Source: a virus. Taken from it: a DNA stretch of 21,264 nucleotides. The stretch is from UHGV virus genome UHGV-0381259. The stretch is one strand, 5' to 3'. A program made the position numbers and the translations under genes. The notes below the pieces were generated by a model, which was not told the origin of the DNA, did not search any database, and was given only the letters and a program-made list of their open reading frames with translations. Below are positions 1 to 18,393 of this stretch, piece after piece (within the stretch, counting starts at the first letter, position 1; the number at the start of each line of letters is the position of its first letter).

Positions 1-2
1 AT

Positions 3-179
3 TTTTTGGAGTCTTTGAAGCTCCAGCGCATTGATTTTTTTCTTAAGCTTGTAGCGGCTAGTGAGTGTAGTGATGAAGAGAAGGGGCTGGCTCTGCAGTG
101 GGTTTCTGAATTGACTGATGAACTCATGGCAAAAATCAGAAGCCACGAATACAACCGCTCAATGGATGTCATCAGCTGA
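3..179 (+). CDS. 3' end of an upstream CDS of unknown function (partial, open at the window edge)
   Basis: Frame 3 is open from the window edge to TGA at 177-179 (...ELTDELMAKIRSHEYNRSMDVIS*); no start in window; product not recognised. Confidence 0.25.
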   Translation, partial: FLESLKLQRIDFFLKLVAASECSDEEKGLALQWVSELTDELMAKIRSHEYNRSMDVIS

Positions 180-189
180 GGTGACTTTT

Positions 190-423
190 ATGCGCATTGA
201 AATAATGATCGATAAAGAGCAGAAGATTAGCCAGTCTACCCTGGACGCCCTTAAATCCGAGCTTTACCGCAATCTGCGCCCCCTGTATCCCAAAACGGTA
301 ATCCGTATCCGTAAAGGTAGCTCTAACGGTGTGGAACTGACCGGACTGCAACTGGACGAAGAAAGAAAACAAGTGATGAAAATTATGCAGAAGGTGTGGG
401 AAGACGACAGCTGGCTGCATTAA
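190..423 (+). CDS. DinI-like small protein (DNA-damage-inducible protein I family)
   Basis: 77-aa product MRIEIMIDKEQ...LYRNLRPLYPKTVIRIRKG...VMKIMQKVWEDDSWLH resembles DinI in length and in the conserved N-terminal MRIE and C-terminal W-x-D-W motifs; GAGGTG RBS 5 nt upstream of ATG 190. The track ORF from 118 is an N-terminal over-extension. Confidence 0.75.
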   Translation: MRIEIMIDKEQKISQSTLDALKSELYRNLRPLYPKTVIRIRKGSSNGVELTGLQLDEERKQVMKIMQKVWEDDSWLH

Positions 424-557
424 GAAACGTTGCTGGCGTCTGAACTTGCTTCTGGCGTCAGCAAGGTTGAACAACGAGCTGTGCGAGGCGTTAGCTCTGT
501 GGTGCATGTCTATACCGCATGAGATCGCATGATCGTTTGAGGATCGTTTTTGCTAAG

Positions 558-581
558 GCCCGCCAGAACTGGCGGGCTTTT
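558..581 (+). terminator. Rho-independent terminator-like hairpin
   Basis: GCCCGCC-agaact-GGCGGGC stem-loop followed directly by TTTT, downstream of the DinI-like gene. Confidence 0.5.
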
Positions 582-626
582 GCGTAGATCATGCAGGTGC
601 ATGAAAACCACTACATAAAGCGGGCA

Positions 627-645
627 GGCGTGGCGGGGATACGAG
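627..645. other. Candidate cos (cohesive-end) sequence of the P2-like phage
   Basis: GGCGTGGCGGGGATACGAG resembles, from memory, the 19-nt cohesive ends of P2/186 (GGCG[A/T]GGCGGGGAAAGCA-); sits in a non-coding gap. Recalled consensus, not verified. Confidence 0.25.
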
Positions 646-715
646 CGCGCGCAAATATGGAAATTAGCTGCGTTTTGTTATATATAGGAGAGATATTAAA
701 AGGGTAGGCACCACT

Positions 716-1240
716 ATGACTGTTTTACACCTTGTAGCAGACCACCTTGTTAAGCAGGCTAATACAACCCATAGAAAGGGGGAGGTGCACGCAATATTAG
801 CAGATGCATATGGTCGTTCTGCTTTTAATCGGTATTATTATGCTTGTTTTCTTAACGTCCGTGAGTTTGTTTCAACTATTGATTCCAATTGGGGCAAGGT
901 CAAGCATGCAGATGTTCCAAAATTATTACGTGATAGTGTAAGTAGAAAGATAGAAGTTGAGCTCCAAAAATCAGAAAAAATTGGCGATATAACTTTATGT
1001 GAATATAAATCTAAAAAGAGCTTAATACGTACTTCACTGAACAATATGGCTTCAACTATGGCATTGGCATATACAATTAGGGGAGTTGTTGATTATGAGC
1101 CGGAAATTGAGATGATATTCTGTAATGGCAGTTTTTCGATTAATAAAACATCAGTGGCTTCGGCTAAGGGGTGGCTACAAACCATTAATTCAGAAAGATC
1201 GAAGGTTACCAGAATTATGAAGGAGATTGGCTTTGTCTAA
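716..1240 (+). CDS. Hypothetical protein, 174 aa, first gene of AT-rich cargo cassette
   Basis: Clean ATG ORF with purine-rich RBS (AAAGGGTAGG) upstream; AT-rich codon usage unlike the phage late genes; no recognisable catalytic motif. Confidence 0.6.
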   Translation: MTVLHLVADHLVKQANTTHRKGEVHAILADAYGRSAFNRYYYACFLNVREFVSTIDSNWGKVKHADVPKLLRDSVSRKIEVELQKSEKIGDITLCEYKSKKSLIRTSLNNMASTMALAYTIRGVVDYEPEIEMIFCNGSFSINKTSVASAKGWLQTINSERSKVTRIMKEIGFV

Positions 1241-1970
1241 CCAGAAAATATTATCAGAATTGTTGGTAAAATTCCCGTTCATAAAAGTTAAAGATGTAAC
1301 AGATTTTATGGATACAATTCTGTTGATCATCCCAATTAACAAAATAGTACCATTGTCTGCTTCGAATAGTATAACAAAACGCCAGATATCTTTATTGGTG
1401 AAACGAATAACAGAAAAGCTAAATGTAAGAGTGTTGATTAGTTACTCACCATTTTCAGATAAAGACAATATTGAAGCGGCTTTAGTGGCGTTAGCGAGAA
1501 GTAATTTTAAAAAAGGGAAGATATCTGATTTGAATTTATCTTTCTTTGATTCGCAAAACGCAGTGCTTTATGTCTTTTGTAAAAACCTTACATTATCAGA
1601 ACGCGAGAAGTGGGAGTCGTTAGTTGTAGGGATATTAAACGGTTTTAATATAAAAGTGACTTCATTTGTATATGAGGCTAAAAATAATCCTGAACCTACA
1701 ATGATGGTTATTTTAAGAGCGGCAAAAAAATGTCAGCCCTTTGATCTTCCAAGATTGTTCAGTCAACTTGATAATGGCGATTATCATATTGAATCACTTG
1801 ATTGGCTGAATGGGAAGCTAGACAACTTACGTAAGAAAGGATTTTTATTAAGAAGCCATGACGGAACTTATAGAATGACATTGTCAGGGTTAGAAATAGT
1901 TCCAGTGACTAAATCTAGGCAAAGTTCTGATATAGAGAGGGTCCTTTATCTTGCACGCAAACATCTATAG
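1227..1970 (+). CDS. Hypothetical protein, about 247 aa, second gene of cargo cassette (start uncertain)
   Basis: ORF overlaps the stop of the previous gene, suggesting translational coupling; track start is TTG at 1227, first in-frame ATG near 1305. Contains VRVLISYSPFSDKD and LTLSEREKWESL motifs (see findings). Confidence 0.55.
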   Translation: MALSNQKILSELLVKFPFIKVKDVTDFMDTILLIIPINKIVPLSASNSITKRQISLLVKRITEKLNVRVLISYSPFSDKDNIEAALVALARSNFKKGKISDLNLSFFDSQNAVLYVFCKNLTLSEREKWESLVVGILNGFNIKVTSFVYEAKNNPEPTMMVILRAAKKCQPFDLPRLFSQLDNGDYHIESLDWLNGKLDNLRKKGFLLRSHDGTYRMTLSGLEIVPVTKSRQSSDIERVLYLARKHL

Positions 1971-2046
1971 TGGTATATTCGCGTTGGTAGTGGCGTTCAC
2001 GAGAGTATGCATCATGCTCATTTGTGAAGGTCGCGGACAGAATGTG

Positions 2047-2097
2047 CGCCTGCGAATCAGCAGTCGTTCCTTCGAAACGTCTGCTGATTCGCAGGCG
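2047..2097 (+). ncRNA. Candidate structured RNA element: perfect 17-bp inverted repeat hairpin upstream of the RT (possible retron msd-like stem)
   Basis: CGCCTGCGAATCAGCAG (2047-2063) pairs perfectly with CTGCTGATTCGCAGGCG (2081-2097); 17-nt loop; no U-tract after the stem; 45 bp upstream of the RT start codon. Confidence 0.3.
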
Positions 2098-2141
2098 TCA
2101 TCAACGAAAGTTTTCATCAGCTTTGCTTAAGGATTGACCTT

Positions 2142-3119
2142 ATGAAAACGCCACTACCCTTATTTTTCACATTCACTGATGCCGAACAGTTTCTTAAGGC
2201 GTTGAGCACACCGCTGAGAGATAGATATTCTGCGGAACTTATTCGACTACAAGGCCTCAGGCTTCCCCCATTAGTTTCTTGGAGTATCTTGTCTGTTGCC
2301 ATTGGCGTAAGCCCACAATTTATTACTTCGTTAATTAAGAATAAGTCAAAATACTATCGTGTTTTTTCTATTTCCAAAGGAAGAGGAAAGAAAAAAAGAA
2401 TTATTGAAGCACCCAAGGTTAGTATAAAAATCATTCAGTCTTGGGTCGCTCATCATTTAAGCATTAATCATAGTCTTGGCATAAGTGAAAATGCATATGC
2501 TTTTATCCCAGGTAAGAATGGGATATATGAAGCTGCAAGTAAACATTGTGGTGCAAAATGGATCCTGTCTATTGATTTAAGAGATTTTTTCCATACGATC
2601 ACTTCAGATATAGTGATTTCAACATTAGTTGAAATCGGATATAGAGCCGATCAGGCTGCTAAATTGAGTGAATTACTTACCTTGAATCAGAGACTTCCGC
2701 AAGGTGCGCCAAGTAGCCCTGTTATCTCAAATTTAGTATTTAGGTCAACTGACTTAAAGATTAATGAGTTGATTTCTAATACGGGTATTAAATATACTAG
2801 ATATGCTGATGATTTGACCTTCTCCGGTGATGATGAAACATTTGATATCGAGGAACTTAAAGATAATGTTGTAGAGTTGTTACTATCTGATAATTGGGTT
2901 GTGGCTGAGGAAAAACTCAGAATAGCTAGGATTCCTAATAGATTAAAAGTACATGGTTTTCTAGTTCATGAAAATAAACCTAGATTGACTAAAGGCTATC
3001 GAAATAAAATTAGAGCATATAAACATTTATTGAGGACTGGGAAAATAGTTGAGAAGGATTTTGATAAAATTAAAGGGCATGTTAACTATAGTGAATATAT
3101 TGATAGATTGAATGAGTAA
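2142..3119 (+). CDS. Reverse transcriptase, retron-type (325 aa, RT core only)
   Basis: RT motifs in the ORF: ILSIDLRDFFHTI, LPQGAPSSPVISNLVF, YTRYADDLTFSG (YADD catalytic box), KVHGFLV; size and motif spacing match compact retron RTs such as Ec86 (from memory). AAGGA RBS 8 nt upstream. Confidence 0.9.
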   Translation: MKTPLPLFFTFTDAEQFLKALSTPLRDRYSAELIRLQGLRLPPLVSWSILSVAIGVSPQFITSLIKNKSKYYRVFSISKGRGKKKRIIEAPKVSIKIIQSWVAHHLSINHSLGISENAYAFIPGKNGIYEAASKHCGAKWILSIDLRDFFHTITSDIVISTLVEIGYRADQAAKLSELLTLNQRLPQGAPSSPVISNLVFRSTDLKINELISNTGIKYTRYADDLTFSGDDETFDIEELKDNVVELLLSDNWVVAEEKLRIARIPNRLKVHGFLVHENKPRLTKGYRNKIRAYKHLLRTGKIVEKDFDKIKGHVNYSEYIDRLNE

Positions 3120-3139
3120 GGGCCTAGCCCTTACTCATT
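3111..3139. terminator. Palindromic hairpin between the convergent RT and Q genes (putative bidirectional terminator)
   Basis: AATGAGTAAGGGC-cta-GCCCTTACTCATT, a perfect 13-bp inverted repeat; the RT stop (3117-3119) and Q stop (3139-3141, minus) both lie in or at the stem. Confidence 0.45.
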
Positions 3140-4170
3140 TAATTTAATGTGTATATTCCAAAGGATATGATTTTATCTCCTATCCAGTTATTTAACTCTT
3201 CTAGTCTTCTCTGTAATGGTATTAACTCATTCCTCACAAAAACAAGGCTTGCCTTCTCCACATCCCCAAAACCCCCAACATTATTAGGCATTATCCCCAT
3301 CATTTGTGGGGGTACACGATGCGCCGCCATCATGTCGTCCCGGCTTACGTTCTTGATGTTCAGAAACTCATCCTTCGCCGCGACTTCTGATAACGGGATA
3401 ATCTGAAGTCCGTCCTTTTTGCCGTTAGGAGAGTACATAAACAGATTGCGGAAGTTACCTGGTCCTTTGGCGCTTTTCATTGCATTGCGGAGGTTGTTCA
3501 CATCCTCCTGGTTTTGTGCGGCGTCGGTCATGTACATGATGAAGCCTGCATGACTGCCGTTGATGTAATACTTCCGGCGGAACAGCGTGGCGGACTCGTT
3601 GAGCAGGGCTGACGGAATGGCAGAAAGATAACCGGGCAGGCCGTAGATCTCCTGGTTGATGTCCGGTTCCATCAGATGAAAAATGCTGCCTTTCGTGAAC
3701 TGATACGGCTGGGTTGTCATACCGTATTGCACAAACCAGTAGGTATCCAGGTCTAACCCGCGTCGGGTGTATTTTGCCAGAGCAGGCTCAAGGGCGATAA
3801 CTTCACCAAACCGGTTCGTGCGTTTCTCCAGGTAGGCGTTACCAAATACCAGATAGTCCTGCACAAAACGTGAAAAAGCCTGTTGGCTGAGCAGCGGGTG
3901 AGGGATGTAGGTGCTGGTCAGAATGTTGCATTTCACCGCAATCGGTGAGCTGTGATGCACGGCGGCGCGGAAGGTTCGCGCCAGTCCGTCAAAGCTGACG
4001 GGAGGCTCATACCAGCGATCTGTCTGTACGCATTCCACATAGTCCAGCAGTTCGCGGCGGTCAAGTACTGGAATGGGATCACCGAAGCTGAAAGCCTCAG
4101 CCGTTGGAGCGTTGCCTGGTTTTGTGTTGTGATCAACCTTTACCAGTTTGATGTTTTTATGTTTGCTCAT
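3139..4170 (-). CDS. Q: Portal vertex protein Q (P2 gpQ family)
   Basis: 343-aa product with strong similarity to P2 gpQ as recalled (PVLDRR..LDYVEC...WYEPPVSF...RAAVHHSSPI...FVRNELIPLQ); correct size and position next to the terminase gene. Confidence 0.93.
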   Translation of the reverse strand: MSKHKNIKLVKVDHNTKPGNAPTAEAFSFGDPIPVLDRRELLDYVECVQTDRWYEPPVSFDGLARTFRAAVHHSSPIAVKCNILTSTYIPHPLLSQQAFSRFVQDYLVFGNAYLEKRTNRFGEVIALEPALAKYTRRGLDLDTYWFVQYGMTTQPYQFTKGSIFHLMEPDINQEIYGLPGYLSAIPSALLNESATLFRRKYYINGSHAGFIMYMTDAAQNQEDVNNLRNAMKSAKGPGNFRNLFMYSPNGKKDGLQIIPLSEVAAKDEFLNIKNVSRDDMMAAHRVPPQMMGIMPNNVGGFGDVEKASLVFVRNELIPLQRRLEELNNWIGDKIISFGIYTLN

Positions 4171-4874
4171 TCTGCCAGCTCCTCGTTAGCAAGAGGCCAT
4201 TCGCACATAAACAGCATTCCCCAGTCCTCTGCTGATAATTCTTTTTTCATATCATTCAGCCAGTTATCAGTAAACAACATTGCTCCTGATGCTACTGCAT
4301 CATCAGCGGTGAATACCATGCGGGTTACACTGTTGTTTCTGCTTAGCTTTTTATATTCCTGCCATGCCTCCGGGTTAGGGCTGGGAGTGGTGTAGTAGGT
4401 GGCGTGGTGGTGTGCGTGCAAGGACATTCCTTTGGCGAGAGTAATCATATTTCTCGGTGATTCAGCCCAGGCATACTCTGACACGTAGACATTTCCACTG
4501 AGTGCGGCGGCGTGGCACTTGAGGTCGATAAAATAAATGACCGCACCATTGGGAAACTCCAGATATGTTTTGCCAGATTTTATTTTTCCAGTGCGCGTAT
4601 AAGCTGCGGTCTGGCTTAAAAATGCTGACACATAGGCTTTGACTGCCTGCGCTGATGCGGTGCTGCAGCAGAGGAAAATCTGGTTACGCCCGGTATGCAG
4701 TGCATCGATCAGGGCCTCATAGGCAAAAAAGAAATCCGCTCCTGCCTGGCGCATTTTTGTGAGTAAACGGTTTCTACTCTTTGGGCCAGTGTTCCACTCA
4801 TACTGGTAATCAAAGAAAGTGCTATCCACCGGAAGTCCCGCGATAGTCATGAGGTTAGTTGGGATTGGGGGCAT
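4167..4874 (-). CDS. Terminase-ATPase-domain paralog (truncated gpP-like protein, about 235 aa)
   Basis: Product aligns to the N-terminal ATPase region of the adjacent gpP (FFFAYEALIDALHTGRNQIFL vs FYFAHEALIDALLTGRNQIFL; FPNGAVIYF vs LPNGATLYF; SGNVYVSEYAWA vs HGNLYLDEYFWI; LFMCEW vs LLMCEF) but has no nuclease half. Its start overlaps the P stop (TGATG) and its stop overlaps the Q start (ATGA). Confidence 0.6.
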   Translation of the reverse strand: MPPIPTNLMTIAGLPVDSTFFDYQYEWNTGPKSRNRLLTKMRQAGADFFFAYEALIDALHTGRNQIFLCCSTASAQAVKAYVSAFLSQTAAYTRTGKIKSGKTYLEFPNGAVIYFIDLKCHAAALSGNVYVSEYAWAESPRNMITLAKGMSLHAHHHATYYTTPSPNPEAWQEYKKLSRNNSVTRMVFTADDAVASGAMLFTDNWLNDMKKELSAEDWGMLFMCEWPLANEELAE

Positions 4875-6640
4875 CAAAAAATCTCCACAATATTGCTGGT
4901 ATTGGCGGACTCGCCCTGCAGCGGTTCGTTAAACAGTGCGTGCATTGTTGCCCAGGCCAGATCGGCATGGCTGGCTTCTTCGCTGCGGCTGGCTTCATAG
5001 GTCGGGCGGTTGCCGCTGGCGGTGGTGGCGCGACGGATTGCCATAAATGACTGCGCAATGTCGGTGTGCCCGGCGTCAAACTCCAGACGGCGGTGGCTGA
5101 TAATGTCGTAGGCCTTGAGTACCAGGGCGTTTTTAACGTTGGGGTTGTAGACAAACTCCCGGACGGCAGGAAAGAACGCTTTCACGTTCTCGTAAACTCC
5201 GTGACCGACACCTGTCGAGTCGATACCGATATAGGTCACGTTGTACTGTTCGGTCAGTTTTTTGATGGCGTCAGCCTGGGCGCGGAAGTCCATCCCGCGC
5301 CACTGGTGACGCTCAAGAATGCGAAACTTACCGCCTGGCACGGCTGGCGGTGCCACCACCACGCATCCGGCGCTGTCGCCGTTCTGCGTACCTTTTGCCG
5401 GGTCATAACCGATCCACACTTCTCGCCAGCCAAACGGGCGCAGGGCCAGTGCATGAAAGTCGGTCCAGACTTCCCAACTGTCCACCATGCATGCCTGCAG
5501 CTCGCTGAGCGGAAATACGGACGCGAGATCGTCCACGAATTCACACATCAGCAGGTTCTGGTATTCGTCCGGGCTGTATTCCATGCGCAACTGGTCAAGG
5601 TCGAACAGGTTACAGCCGCCGCGCACCGCATCTTCCACGGTGACTATCTGGCGGTATTGCCCGTCTGCACACAGCAGGCCTGGAGCCAGATTGCTGTGGG
5701 ACAGGTCGATGTCCACCTTGTCGGCTTTATTGCGCCCACGGTTGAATAGCGCACCGGACCAGAACGGATAAGCACTGTGTGTCAGGCTGGATGGCGTGGA
5801 AAAATAGGTTTGTCGCCATTTTTTGTGAATAGCCATACCGGAAGCCACTTTGCGCAGCTCCTGGAATTTCGGTATCCAGAAATATTCATCCAGATACAGG
5901 TTTCCGTGGTAACTCTGGGCCGTGCGGGCATTGGTGCCGAGGAAATACAGTGTGGCCCCGTTGGGAAGCACCATCGGATCGCCTTTCAGCTCCACTTCCA
6001 CTTCTTTGGCGAAGTCGATGATGTACTGCTTAAAGACGTGGGCCTGTGCCTTGCTGGCGGAAAGGAAAATCTGGTTACGTCCGGTAAGCAGAGCGTCAAT
6101 CAGGGCTTCATGGGCAAAGTAAAAGGTCGCGCCGATCTGGCGTGACTTCAGCAGGTTGCGGATGCGGTTGGTTTTTCCGGCTTCCCACCAGTGGCGCTGG
6201 TAGTTGAACATGGAGGAATGGAAGATTTCTTCCAGCTTCTCAATCTGCTCATCGGTGAAAACATTCTTTTCCGGCTGACGGCGCGGGCCTTTGTTGCGGT
6301 TGGCGACGTTAGGGTTTAAGTCGACTTCGTTGCCGCCATTGTTAAACTTGCCGATCCGCGCGTGGCGTTCCGACTGGCGCGCCAGCAGGTCAATCTCTTT
6401 GAAATCTTTCCCTTCTTTGTGCTCCTTCATAATGAGCTGGCAGTAGCGTGCGGCGGTGGTGAGCTGCATCTGATCCAGCGGCCCATAGTCACCCCACTTG
6501 TCGCGTTTCTTCCAGCTGTGAACGGTTGCAACTTTCTCGCCCAGCATTTCAGCAATGCGGGCTACACGGTATCCCTGAAAGTACAGCAGCATGGCCTGCC
6601 GACGGGGATCGAGATCTGCGGGTGTCAGTGTGGTGTTCAT
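4874..6640 (-). CDS. P: Terminase large (ATPase) subunit P (P2 gpP family)
   Basis: 588-aa product matching P2 gpP in length and sequence character; divergent from the O gene across the late promoter region. Confidence 0.93.
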   Translation of the reverse strand: MNTTLTPADLDPRRQAMLLYFQGYRVARIAEMLGEKVATVHSWKKRDKWGDYGPLDQMQLTTAARYCQLIMKEHKEGKDFKEIDLLARQSERHARIGKFNNGGNEVDLNPNVANRNKGPRRQPEKNVFTDEQIEKLEEIFHSSMFNYQRHWWEAGKTNRIRNLLKSRQIGATFYFAHEALIDALLTGRNQIFLSASKAQAHVFKQYIIDFAKEVEVELKGDPMVLPNGATLYFLGTNARTAQSYHGNLYLDEYFWIPKFQELRKVASGMAIHKKWRQTYFSTPSSLTHSAYPFWSGALFNRGRNKADKVDIDLSHSNLAPGLLCADGQYRQIVTVEDAVRGGCNLFDLDQLRMEYSPDEYQNLLMCEFVDDLASVFPLSELQACMVDSWEVWTDFHALALRPFGWREVWIGYDPAKGTQNGDSAGCVVVAPPAVPGGKFRILERHQWRGMDFRAQADAIKKLTEQYNVTYIGIDSTGVGHGVYENVKAFFPAVREFVYNPNVKNALVLKAYDIISHRRLEFDAGHTDIAQSFMAIRRATTASGNRPTYEASRSEEASHADLAWATMHALFNEPLQGESANTSNIVEIF

Positions 6641-16475: not shown

Positions 16476-16898
16476 ATGTATTTATTTTCGCCAAGCACAT
16501 TGGGTTTTTATCCCATCGAGATGAAAGAAGAATACCTTACCAATGGTTCATTACCATCTGATGTTATAGAGGTTTCTGATAGCGTCAGAAATGAATATAA
16601 CTTTGCGCCACCTGAAGGCAAACAGCTAAGTTCCAGCCAAAATATGCCAGTCTGGATTGATATTCCACCGGCGACACGTGAAGAGTTGATTGCTGCTGCC
16701 GAAAAAGAACGCCAGAAACTACTGGCCCATGCTGACGCTGTTATGCTGGACTGGCGAACTGAACTGATGCTGGGTGAAATCAGCGACGCCAACAAAGCTA
16801 AGCTGTCGGCGTGGCTGGCCTATAAAAATGAAGTTAAGTCGGCTGATGTGACAACTGACCCGGAGCGTGTTAACTGGCCTGTTCCCCCGGAGGCGTAG
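16476..16898 (+). CDS. G: Tail fibre assembly chaperone G (Tfa family), currently expressed orientation
   Basis: 140-aa product with the conserved Tfa C-terminal pattern (IAAAEKERQKLL...W.PVPPEA); directly follows H. Confidence 0.85.
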   Translation: MYLFSPSTLGFYPIEMKEEYLTNGSLPSDVIEVSDSVRNEYNFAPPEGKQLSSSQNMPVWIDIPPATREELIAAAEKERQKLLAHADAVMLDWRTELMLGEISDANKAKLSAWLAYKNEVKSADVTTDPERVNWPVPPEA

Positions 16899-17310
16899 GC
16901 CATTCAATATCTGGCGCACCGGAAGTATCGACCAGTTCCAGTGCGTCCAGATAATCCAGCCACAAATTATATTGCGCCAGTTCCTCACCTTTCAGACGAC
17001 CAATAGCCGCTTTACCAGGCCATTGTTTACTGTTCATATAATCGTTGGCCTGATTAATCAGTTGCTGCTTTTCAAGTTCGGCTGCAGCAATCTGTTCCTC
17101 ATGTGTTGGTGGTGGAATTTCAGTCCATGCAGGAAAACTATTTTCTCCAGCGATACGGATTTTTCCTTTCGGCGGTAATCCGGAAAACTCAATATACACT
17201 TGCTCATCAACTTCAACAGCATCATCTGGCCATGAGTCAGCTTGAGTGTAATCCTCTTTCATCTCCAGCGGATAGAAAGAGTTTGTAGTCGCGGAATATA
17301 TGTAATTCAT
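16870..17310 (-). CDS. Alternative tail fibre assembly chaperone G' (Tfa family), silent orientation
   Basis: 146-aa minus-strand product homologous to G (FYPLEMKEDY...IAAAELEKQQL...WPTPPGE); its 3' end overlaps the 3' end of G by about 29 bp. Confidence 0.8.
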   Translation of the reverse strand: MNYIYSATTNSFYPLEMKEDYTQADSWPDDAVEVDEQVYIEFSGLPPKGKIRIAGENSFPAWTEIPPPTHEEQIAAAELEKQQLINQANDYMNSKQWPGKAAIGRLKGEELAQYNLWLDYLDALELVDTSGAPDIEWPTPPGEQAS

Positions 17311-17331
17311 TTTTCACTCCATATAGCTAAA

Positions 17332-17682
17332 TTAACAGCCTAACGCTAAAAATGAAGCGCCGAGGCCAGGAGTACTGGCTCTGGATATAAATTTAACCGG
17401 GTCGGGACTAAAACCTGCACAGGCAATATAACCAACAGCCCCGCTATCTGGTGTGTAGTCTTGTGAGACCAAAACACGCAGACATCTGTTTGGAAATGCA
17501 ATCGGGAAATGGGTTACTACATCCTGTGCAATGCCTGGTGCGCCGATTGAGCCCCACTGAAGAATAAAACCTGATGGAAATTTTTGATATCCAGTACCTG
17601 AAACAGAAAGCGTGAAGCTACCCATATCAGGTATCTGATTCGCCCCTGTCCCTACATTCCTTTTAGCCGCTTCTCCCAAACC
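17332..17682 (-). CDS. Alternative tail-fibre C-terminal tip Hv' (no own start; fused to H constant part after inversion)
   Basis: Minus-strand frame encodes ...[22 protein letters not shown]...FPSGFILQ...FPIAFP..., parallel to the H tip (LGEAAKRDVGSGAGQVPDMSSF...LPSGYVIQ...FPIPFP); the track ORF extension to 17781 is outside the segment and not a real N-terminus. Confidence 0.7.
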
Positions 17683-17696
17683 AACGTTTAAGAAAA
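17671..17696. other. Candidate right crossover site (hix/gix-like) of the invertible segment
   Basis: TTCTCCCAAACC-AA-CGTTTAAGAAAA closely resembles the recalled Hin/Gin site consensus TTCTTGAAAACC-AA-GGTTTTTGATAA. Confidence 0.5.
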
Positions 17697-17750
17697 TGTA
17701 GTTTTCCCCCCTAGCTGGCATCATTTGGGCTTTTGCATGAGGGAAAACAA

Positions 17751-18329
17751 ATGCAGGTTGGCTATGTGCGCGTATCAACAAATGAACAAAATACCGCGCT
17801 ACAGCGTGACGCGCTGGAACGGTCGGGATGTGAGCTAATTTTCGAGGATAAAATCAGCGGTAAATCGACAAACAGGCCAAGGTTAAATCGCGCACTCAGG
17901 CAACTTAATGCCGGTGATACTCTCGTTGTCTGGAAGCTCGACAGGCTCGGGCGTAGCATGCGCCATCTTGTCTCTATGACTGAAGAGCTTCGCCAGCGAG
18001 GGGTTAATTTCAGAAGCCTGACCGACAGTATTGATACCTCAACCCCGATGGGGCGATTTTTCTTTCACATCATGGGCGCTCTTGCAGAAATGGAACGCGA
18101 GTTAATCGTCGAACGAACCCGCGCCGGGCTGGATGCAGCCCGGGCACAAGGCAGGATCGGAGGTCGTAGGCCGAAGCTGACGCCTGATGAATGGGCTCAG
18201 GCTGGCCGGTTGATTGCGGCCGGAGAATCCCGACAGCGTGTTGCACTGATTTTTGATGTGGGCATATCGACGCTGTATAAAAAATTTCCGGCGACAAATC
18301 CCGTTGTGTCAGCCACCGGCGAACCCTGA
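17751..18329 (+). CDS. Serine recombinase, DNA invertase of the Gin/Hin/Pin/Cin family
   Basis: N-terminus [22 protein letters not shown] with the catalytic Ser context (YVRVST); resolvase catalytic domain plus C-terminal HTH ([22 protein letters not shown]); about 192 aa; adjacent to the right crossover site. Confidence 0.9.
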
Positions 18330-18393
18330 CAAATAGCCGCATACAGGCGTAAACCAGACAATATCACTCACCTCAACTAACGGAGTTAAACGG

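Follow-up and report, generated by a model that had tools for sequence, protein, structure and literature searches.

The window analysed here, a stretch of 21,264 nucleotides from a virus (UHGV virus genome UHGV-0381259), carries a reverse transcriptase (RT) gene at positions 2142-3119. The gene is part of a four-part cassette, in the order HEPN - WH/HTH - ncRNA - RT, which is flanked by genes of a P2-like prophage. The following features were assigned:

600..667, no strand assigned: conserved P2-family segment, cos-like region; it marks the cassette's left edge, with the portal gene on the other side
716..1240, plus strand: HEPN ribonuclease effector (toxin), 174 aa; PADLOC HEPN_IX 1.4e-52; catalytic H64 and R122
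1233..1970, plus strand: WH / KH-KH-HTH adaptor (antitoxin, msDNA binder), 245 aa; PADLOC HTH_IX 1.5e-61
1986..2141, plus strand: type IX retron ncRNA (msr-msd); G1 = 1986; the 3' end may extend into the RT ORF
2003..2019, plus strand: msr stem-loop 1 (Kva2 G18-C34), by numbering transfer from locus L081; compensatory pairs
2030..2105, plus strand: msd template (Kva2 G45-C120), with a long hairpin at 2042-2101; the predicted 76-nt msdDNA is its reverse complement
2106..2125, plus strand: stem-loop 3 (SL3; GAAAG..CUUUG); G2125 is the counterpart of the proposed branching G (Kva2 G139)
2142..3119, plus strand: retron type IX RT, 325 aa; identical to WP_088551309.1; PADLOC RT_IX 4.2e-129, full length
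2532..2546, plus strand: region X, A131-A132-S-K-H135; AAxxH, the type IX version of the retron NAxxH
2802..2813, plus strand: YADD catalytic motif, Y221-D224, by sequence; invariant in a 25-sequence alignment
2949..2957, plus strand: V270-H271-G272 (gta cat ggt) within NRLKVHGFLV, where region Y (RT motif 7) begins
3110..3140, no strand assigned: perfect 14-bp hairpin seen in the sequence, overlapping the RT stop codon; spurious MIR405 match on both strands

A preliminary description of this DNA had pointed out that the RT reads VHG at the position where retron RTs typically carry VTG. Translation of the ORF gives the other RT motifs YEAASKH, DLRDFF, QGAPSSP, and YTRYADD together with the VHG triplet, and in phmmer alignments to solved retron RTs the triplet lies directly under the VTG of Ec86 (QRKVTGLVI) and Ec67 (RQEVTGLTV). 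Both the observation and the register on which it depends were confirmed in this way, and no misalignment of the VTG position was found. An AF2 model of the RT (pLDDT 90.8) was analyzed with DSSP, which assigns residues 269-270 and 273-274 to strands and 271-272 to a turn, a small beta-hairpin with VHG across the turn. The motif-7 hairpin has H271-G272 at its tip and is adjacent to the YADD active site. We take this tip to be equivalent to the "primer grip" hLG of other RTs. In other retrons VTG is found in a loop adjoining YADD; it has been described as stabilising the active site in Eco7, and as touching the DNA backbone and positioning the priming G in type I-A. Judged by position, the most probable role of H271 is a contact with the backbone of primer or template close to the active site, in line with what has been described for VTG elsewhere.

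The RT was compared with profile models, solved structures, and published lists of retrons. The PADLOC model RT_IX scored 428 bits and the runner-up, another retron RT model, 224 bits; each of the 25 listed PADLOC matches of the protein is to a retron RT model. The identical protein WP_088551309.1 is encoded by E. coli MFDS1016424, whose genome is 100% identical to the window over positions 600-3200, and Table S1 of Carabias et al. (2026; doi 10.64898/2026.07.14.737667) includes it among the type IX retron RTs. The structure of Retron-Kva2, a type IX retron of Klebsiella variicola, has been determined by cryo-EM (PDB 36ht; Hayashi et al., 2026, doi 10.64898/2026.07.14.738597; also PMC13405049), and its RT (36ht_A) matches the RT of the window at 1.5e-145 with 64.3% identity, ungapped over 325 aa. 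A Foldseek search used a PDB library that ran to April 2026 and excluded 36ht. The closest solved folds are retron RTs (Ec86, Eco2, Eco7/Ec78, Ec83, Eco8), with TM scores of 0.72-0.77 for the best of them (Ec86, Eco2, Eco7). Retron RTs occupy ranks 1-18 (TM 0.55-0.77), followed by group II, DGR, DRT2, and DRT9 RTs at TM of about 0.5-0.59.

Two observations speak against an assignment to the retrons. The NCBIfam retron models score below their cut-offs, for example retron_St85_RT with 214.6 bits (curated cut-off 235), and the literal NAxxH and VTG strings by which reviews define retron RTs are absent. In region X the protein has the conserved H in the form AAxxH, which agrees with the motif in the sense of Mestre (2020), where H is the conserved residue, rather than with the literal NAxxH. 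In region Y the literal T is missing; VHG is aligned to VTG and retains G272, the G having been described as the most conserved residue of the triplet (Mestre, 2020). Models of other RT families perform far worse than the retron models: the scores of NCBIfam Drt2 and Drt3a are 36 bits (cut-off 390) and 26 bits (cut-off 200), respectively, and that of the group II intron RT/maturase model group_II_RT_mat (TIGR04416) is 67.7 bits, where the cut-off is 300. An Rfam scan of positions 1-4000 revealed no intron RNA family. The clade of this RT is type IX (Mestre, 2020), which has already been classified, catalogued, and structurally solved, and VHG is its standard form of VTG. The impression that the protein is very retron-like is borne out by PADLOC, by the 36ht match, and by Foldseek; the suggestion of a new divergent clade or of a DRT/Abi-like group gives way to type IX, considering the RT_IX, Drt2, and Drt3a scores.

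The two protein-coding genes upstream of the RT gene are also those of a type IX retron. The HEPN protein is a HEPN-like effector with split catalytic H and R; it matches the HEPN of Retron-Kva2 (36ht_I) over its full length at 5e-67 with 60.3% identity, and residues H10, H64, and R122 are conserved. The winged-helix/KH-HTH (WH) gene lies between the HEPN gene and the ncRNA, begins with TTG, and overlaps the stop of the HEPN gene by 8 nt. Its start at 1233 agrees with the PGAP annotation and with the 245-aa genes of seven of the eight homologous loci that were fetched. The WH protein matches that of Kva2 (36ht_B) at 3.6e-78 with 51.2% identity over its full length, and all msDNA-contacting residues (R50, K57, N193, D197, R200, K201, R207) are conserved. 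Within the RT, R73, F75, and Y221-D224 are conserved relative to Kva2. All eight fetched loci share the layout of the window, with genes of 174, 245, and about 325 aa and a 171-nt gap, the WH gene being called as 200 aa in one of them (L086).

The 171-nt gap between the WH and RT genes is highly structured (fold energy -77.9 kcal/mol, z = -6.25). Across nine enterobacterial loci (the window and the eight others) the ncRNA has a column identity of 94%, with RTs that are only 61-88% identical. The ncRNA is far better conserved than the proteins. Conservation starts at GGTAGTGG (G1 = 1986), and numbering from this point reproduces the published Kva2 numbering in L081, a Kva2-like locus whose RT is identical to that of Kva2 at 319 of 325 positions. 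The features mapped from Kva2 are stem-loop 1 (nt 18-34), A42 and G44, the template (nt 45-120), and G121 and G139; the RT thumb has been reported to bind stem-loop 1 in Kva2 (Hayashi et al., 2026). The msdDNA nucleotides named in the Kva2 paper (dG1, dA5, dT6, dA8, C9, G10, dG16, dT31, dG33, dA34, dG36, dT50, C58-A61, dG68, dC76) are identical in the window; the exception is d70, which is changed together with its RNA partner. The RT gene is accompanied by a structured ncRNA that combines an msr stem-loop with a long msd hairpin, as expected of a retron.

A covariance model (R1) was built from the close loci. It finds the ncRNA directly upstream of the RT gene in nine distant type IX loci among those listed (33-89 bits), and finds none next to the four VTG-type RTs tested. 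These nine come from 80 listed loci, obtained by a contig search with the RT alignment and a generic RYADDL pattern, and include no close enterobacterial locus. Compensatory change was observed in 38 of 53 base pairs. The SL3 arms GAAAG/CUUUG are conserved in seven of the nine distant loci and altered or absent in the other two (L003 and L005). A scan of positions 1-4000 against Rfam at E <= 1 returned no retron msr or other meaningful family; matches to MIR405, RsaD, and CRISPR-DR33 are artefacts of the terminator hairpin and of AT-rich sequence. A canonical a1/a2 pairing that would use nucleotides upstream of 1986, as seen in a single-sequence fold, was rejected because the upstream sequence is not conserved in homologous loci.

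For Kva2 a branching G, G139, has been proposed as the last position of SL3, downstream of the msd, an assignment for which Hayashi et al. (2026) is the sole source. In the second Kva2 preprint priming is given in generic terms (inverted repeat, priming guanosine), and the length of the Kva2 msdDNA differs between the two Kva2 studies (71 nt vs 55 nt). The preliminary description had raised the possibility of a different RNA template; the proposed 3' branching G and the lack of an Rfam match weakly echo this idea.

H271 is strongly conserved. Among the nearest representatives of 90%-identity clusters that cover the site (43-99% identity), 118 of 119 have VHG, the exception being VYG. These 119 near homologues come from many genera, and the block RLKVHG[LF]LVH hardly varies among them. 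In the 25-sequence alignment, where mean column identity is only 54%, the column of H271 is invariant, as are those of A131, A132, and H135. The retention of H in 118 of 119 near homologues over this range of identity, together with the invariant column, indicates that H271 is under selection and did not arise by chance. The triplet is therefore not a private change of this element, a point on which the preliminary description had called for comparison with close homologues.

A wider sample consisted of 150 score-ranked representatives of clusters at 50% identity. About 55 top-ranked representatives carry xAAxxH together with V[H/L/Y/F/N]G and never VTG; below the first VTG protein the sequences carry NAxxH with VTG or ITG, so that the switch is clean. 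All 19 of the non-T representatives that were sampled have RT_IX as their best PADLOC model, by a margin of about 100-200 bits, and the best model of the first VTG protein is RT_III-A. Over the sample, position 271 is T in 78, H in 27, L in 23, and Y, N, or A in 4 each. V270 is present in 119 of 142 representatives, G272 is near-invariant (141 of 143), and H135 is found in 148 of 150, with the change of N to A at position 131 family-wide in RT_IX. Within RT_IX, position 271 may be H, L, Y, F, or N, and T occurs in none of the representatives examined that have the RT_IX signature. Judged from these alignments, H occupies position 271 throughout the near clade, and deeper branches have L, Y, or F. 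VHG was also found in all nine of the distant loci with a type IX ncRNA (among the matches listed). Elsewhere among retrons, a change of T to H has been noted in the validated retron Ec48 and one of V to I in Vc81 (Simon, 2019; PMC6868368).

The proposal that T to H marks a clade is thus borne out by the joint switch to AAxxH and V[H/L/Y/F]G and by the 19 RT_IX assignments. The clade is a described one: the protein falls inside a known retron type in which the middle position of the triplet varies, which was the outcome that the preliminary description had named in advance as refuting its reading. The main text of the type IX preprints (Kva2, Sen3/Yin1) and the supplement of Hayashi et al. contain no discussion of VTG, VHG, or H271, and no remark on the pairing of AAxxH with VHG was found in the literature searched.

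The cassette (about 700-3130) has a GC content of about 34%, versus 50-58% in its flanks. It is located between genes for a gpA replication endonuclease and a DinI-like protein on one side and portal, terminase, scaffold, and capsid genes of a P2-like prophage on the other. When positions 600-3200 were used as a query, only the first 55-100 nt or so matched 1,250 other E. coli genomes, and the same nucleotides match Fels-2, RE2010, and Klebsiella P2-like phages. The segment at 600..667 is presumably the cos region. It has been shown that the cos-proximal hotspot of P2-like phages holds diverse defence systems, retrons included (Rousset et al., 2022). The cassette is AT-rich cargo in this gpA-to-portal defence hotspot of an E. 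coli P2-like prophage. It was detected in three of 5,426 complete E. coli genomes, in copies that are 99.6-100% identical. P2-like prophages of K. variicola (L085) and Pantoea ananatis (L088) carry it at the corresponding site; the copies in other genera reside in integrase or ICE-type islands. A near-identical copy of the RT exists in Salmonella, as a partial S. enterica RT (P0012) is 100% identical over 78% of the RT of the window. The hairpin at 3110..3140 lies where the RT and portal genes converge and probably serves as a terminator in both directions. A scan of positions 400-3300 for consensus promoters and terminators gave no sites above shuffled controls, and no promoter was assigned.

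Based on these analyses, we conclude with high confidence that positions 2142-3119 encode the RT of a complete and intact type IX retron (HEPN - WH/HTH - ncRNA - RT), carried as cargo by a P2-like prophage, for which VHG is the standard form of the triplet. We infer that the E. coli element is functional, since every residue shown to matter in homologues is present. Its msDNA production, toxicity, and defence would be expected by analogy with homologues that are 51-64% identical.

The mechanism of type IX retrons has been studied in three systems, in three preprints of July 2026. msDNA has been shown for Kva2, Sen3, and Yin1, and defence by Kva2 and Sen3 depends on RT residues D223/D224. In Kva2 the HEPN protein (H64, R122) is a toxin that is neutralised by RT-msDNA and WH, which enclose the active site of the HEPN dimer within a higher-order assembly; the msdDNA is cleaved by a phage exonuclease, after which HEPN cuts rRNA and tRNA and translation is arrested (Hayashi et al., 2026). 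The second Kva2 study describes a 4:3:2 RT:WH:HEPN particle and identifies the T5 protein D5 as the trigger. In Sen3 and Yin1 an msDNA-scaffolded 8-10-mer ring has been described, which is triggered by a phage PD-(D/E)XK nuclease, and HEPN cleaves tRNA anticodon loops (Carabias et al., 2026). By analogy with Kva2, Sen3, and Yin1, the RT of the E. coli element would copy the msd hairpin of the ncRNA into msDNA. RT-msDNA, WH, and HEPN dimers would then assemble into a higher-order complex in which the HEPN active site is blocked. Cleavage of the msDNA by a phage nuclease would free HEPN, which would cleave tRNA and rRNA and lead to translation arrest (abortive infection).

Other explanations of the VHG triplet were weighed. 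It could have a different ancestry if the RT belonged to another defence group (DRT/UG, Abi) or resembled group II intron RTs, a reading favoured by the missing literal motifs, by the sub-threshold NCBIfam retron scores, and by the PGAP name, which is only "reverse transcriptase family protein". This is highly improbable in view of the RT_IX score, the exclusively retron models among the 25 listed PADLOC matches, the low Drt2, Drt3a, and group_II_RT_mat scores, and the precedence of retron folds over all others. Moreover, the RT gene directly follows an msr-msd ncRNA and is accompanied by HEPN and WH partners, and msDNA has been shown experimentally for a homologue. Likewise, almost no credence can be given to the idea that VHG arose privately or by degeneration in a prophage gene that is decaying. 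The rarity of the cassette in E. coli would fit such decay, but H is kept by nearly all near homologues in many genera, the ORFs are intact with their catalytic residues in place, and the three E. coli copies are almost or fully identical.

A third explanation accepts the type IX assignment and regards the changes of T to H and of N to A as functional adaptations to an unusual priming and template architecture, with the branching G in the 3' SL3, downstream of the msd, instead of following a 5' a1 repeat, and H271 as a determinant of template or primer recognition. In solved retron RTs both motifs flank YADD, and VTG has been described as touching the DNA backbone and positioning the priming G. 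N131 occurs with T271 in 73 of the 150 representatives and A or G131 with a residue other than T in 56, leaving few exceptions, so that the two substitutions co-occur almost perfectly. The placement of G139 by Hayashi et al. (2026), the retention of the SL3 arms in most distant loci, and the absence of Rfam matches, retron msr included, point in the same direction. However, the coupling of positions 131 and 271 is essentially a matter of one clade versus the rest; it is confounded by phylogeny and hence is not independent evidence of a functional interaction. The range of residues that RT_IX tolerates at position 271 (H, L, Y, F, N) speaks against a family-wide role that is specific to the imidazole, and the type IV retron Ec48, which makes msDNA, has the same change of T to H. 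Furthermore, the other two type IX preprints give a canonical msr-msd architecture or inverted-repeat priming, and the 3' branching G was deduced from read ends rather than mapped as a 2'-5' branch. We consider adaptation of this kind unlikely. The specific form in which the changes of N131 to A and of T271 to H, L, Y, or F would be compensatory remodelling around YADD for permuted priming (G2125 in SL3), with H271 selecting the primer or template, seems quite doubtful. If true, type IX RTs would have a mechanistically distinct initiation of msDNA synthesis. A standard type IX retron RT remains the preferred reading, and the E. coli element adds nothing new to the mechanism of this retron type.

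The locus has consequences for annotation. NAxxH and VTG are unsuitable as literal strings, as all RT_IX-type sequences examined combine AAxxH with V[H/L/Y/F]G. Motif filters and current NCBIfam cut-offs miss type IX RTs, which is why PGAP labels the three cassette genes "hypothetical" or "reverse transcriptase family protein". The element is also a further case of a P2-like prophage that carries an abortive-infection system in the cos-proximal hotspot.

Among known systems the closest is Retron-Kva2. It shares with the window the order of the four-part operon, the RT motifs NRLKVHGFLVH and AAxxH, and the catalytic and contact residues, and the ncRNA of the Kva2-like locus L081 is close to identical to that of the window. 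The element of the window differs in its E. coli host and in its carrier, a P2-like prophage hotspot, in one extra nucleotide in the SL3 loop, and in two residues of the WH dimer interface (Y134 to I, L138 to F). Sen3 and Yin1 belong to the same type IX family, with the same proposed mechanism, and the Yin1 RT also reads NRLKVHGLLVHG.

The canonical VTG RTs (Ec86/Eco1, II-A; Ec67/Eco2, I-C; Ec78/Eco7, I-A; Ec83) have the same fold as the RT of the window (TM 0.69-0.77) and share with it YADD, the H of region X, and the G of region Y; upstream of the RT, their retrons likewise have an ncRNA in which an msr stem-loop is joined to a long msd hairpin. They carry NAxxH and VTG, in contrast to AAxxH and VHG in type IX, and their effectors are different. 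The type IX RT is set apart from them by an additional domain at its N-terminus, residues 1-45, to which WH binds (Hayashi et al., 2026). Ec48/Retron-Eco6 (type IV) resembles the window in the change of T to H within VTG and, according to the review cited above (Simon, 2019; PMC6868368), produces msDNA; it belongs to another RT clade and has another effector, a 2TM protein.

The ncRNA (1986-2141) of the type IX retron is much better conserved than its partner proteins. Between the window and eight homologous enterobacterial retron loci (L081-L088) its column identity was 94%, whereas identity of the reverse transcriptase (RT) across loci was only 61-88%; it also far exceeds the identity of the winged-helix (WH) and HEPN proteins to those of Retron-Kva2 from Klebsiella variicola (51 and 60%, respectively). 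The msd loop UCCUUCGAA is invariant in the window and all eight loci, and is retained in seven of nine distant loci from other proteobacterial classes. This loop corresponds to the msDNA tip, to which the HTH domain of the WH protein binds.

A conserved long-range pairing between the 5′ and 3′ ends (1986-1988 with 2137-2139) closes the ncRNA and overlaps the region immediately upstream of the RT start codon. Covariation was detected at all three modelled pairs. The pairing is GGU/ACC in enterobacteria; in the distant loci of type IX (L004, L006-L009) it extends to GGGA(G)/(C)UCCC. The closing helix is similar to a short a1/a2 helix.

The two preprints on Kva2 (10.64898/2026.07.14.738597 and PMC13405049) differ on points that bear on the priming site of type IX retrons: the msdDNA length is in conflict (71 vs 55 nt), the ncRNA numberings are offset by 28 nt, and a branching G located 3′ of the msd has been proposed in only one of them. 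In the window this proposed branching G would be G2125, in SL3.

Within the query 600-3200, only the short segment 600-667 recurs elsewhere in E. coli, in about 1,250 further genomes, and it is also common to Fels-2, RE2010, and P2-like phages of Yersinia and Klebsiella. This segment contains GGCGTGGCGGGGA, which resembles the P2/186 cos sequence. If 600-667 is cos, the packaged genome would have the retron cassette at its left end, with cos on one side of the cassette and the portal gene on the other. The end of the RT gene carries the following feature:

3110-3140, perfect hairpin (14 bp, 3-nt loop), overlapping the RT stop codon (TAA, 3117-3119) and located where the RT and portal genes converge

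Spurious matches to the Rfam family MIR405 were obtained on both strands of this hairpin, which is probably a bidirectional terminator.

Beyond the portal gene (3139-4170), an additional ORF was identified before the terminase ATPase gene (4874-6640):

4167-4877, minus strand, ORF of 236 aa

It overlaps each of its neighbors by 4 nt, is named "terminase large subunit domain-containing protein" by PGAP, and shares 34% identity (E 3e-34) with the ATPase core (residues 142-368) of the terminase next to it. The ORF thus looks like a truncated paralogue of the terminase, at the Q-P junction. We know of no such paralogue at this junction in the standard P2 gene order. Further along the prophage, at approximately 16490-18340 (L089 34391-36241), a "recombinase family protein" has as neighbors tail-fibre fragments and tail-fibre assembly genes in opposed orientation, an arrangement typical of invertible host-range segments of the Cin/Gin type.

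Of the three retron genes (716-3119; NZ_CP106924.1 1145785-1148188), RefSeq/PGAP lists the first two as hypothetical and the third as "reverse transcriptase family protein". The best NCBIfam retron model for the RT was retron_St85_RT, with a score (214.6 bits) slightly below the cut-off of 235; the HEPN_IX and WH proteins were covered by no NCBIfam or Pfam model. One relative recovered in the RT homologue search (P0142, 586 aa) joins an HTH_IX accessory protein (residues 7-240) to RT_IX (256-580); it may be a natural fusion, or else the product of a gene call that reads through the ncRNA. Its RT_IX part keeps the motif RLKVHGLLVH. The putative fusion fits with the Kva2 structure, in which WH and RT are in direct contact.
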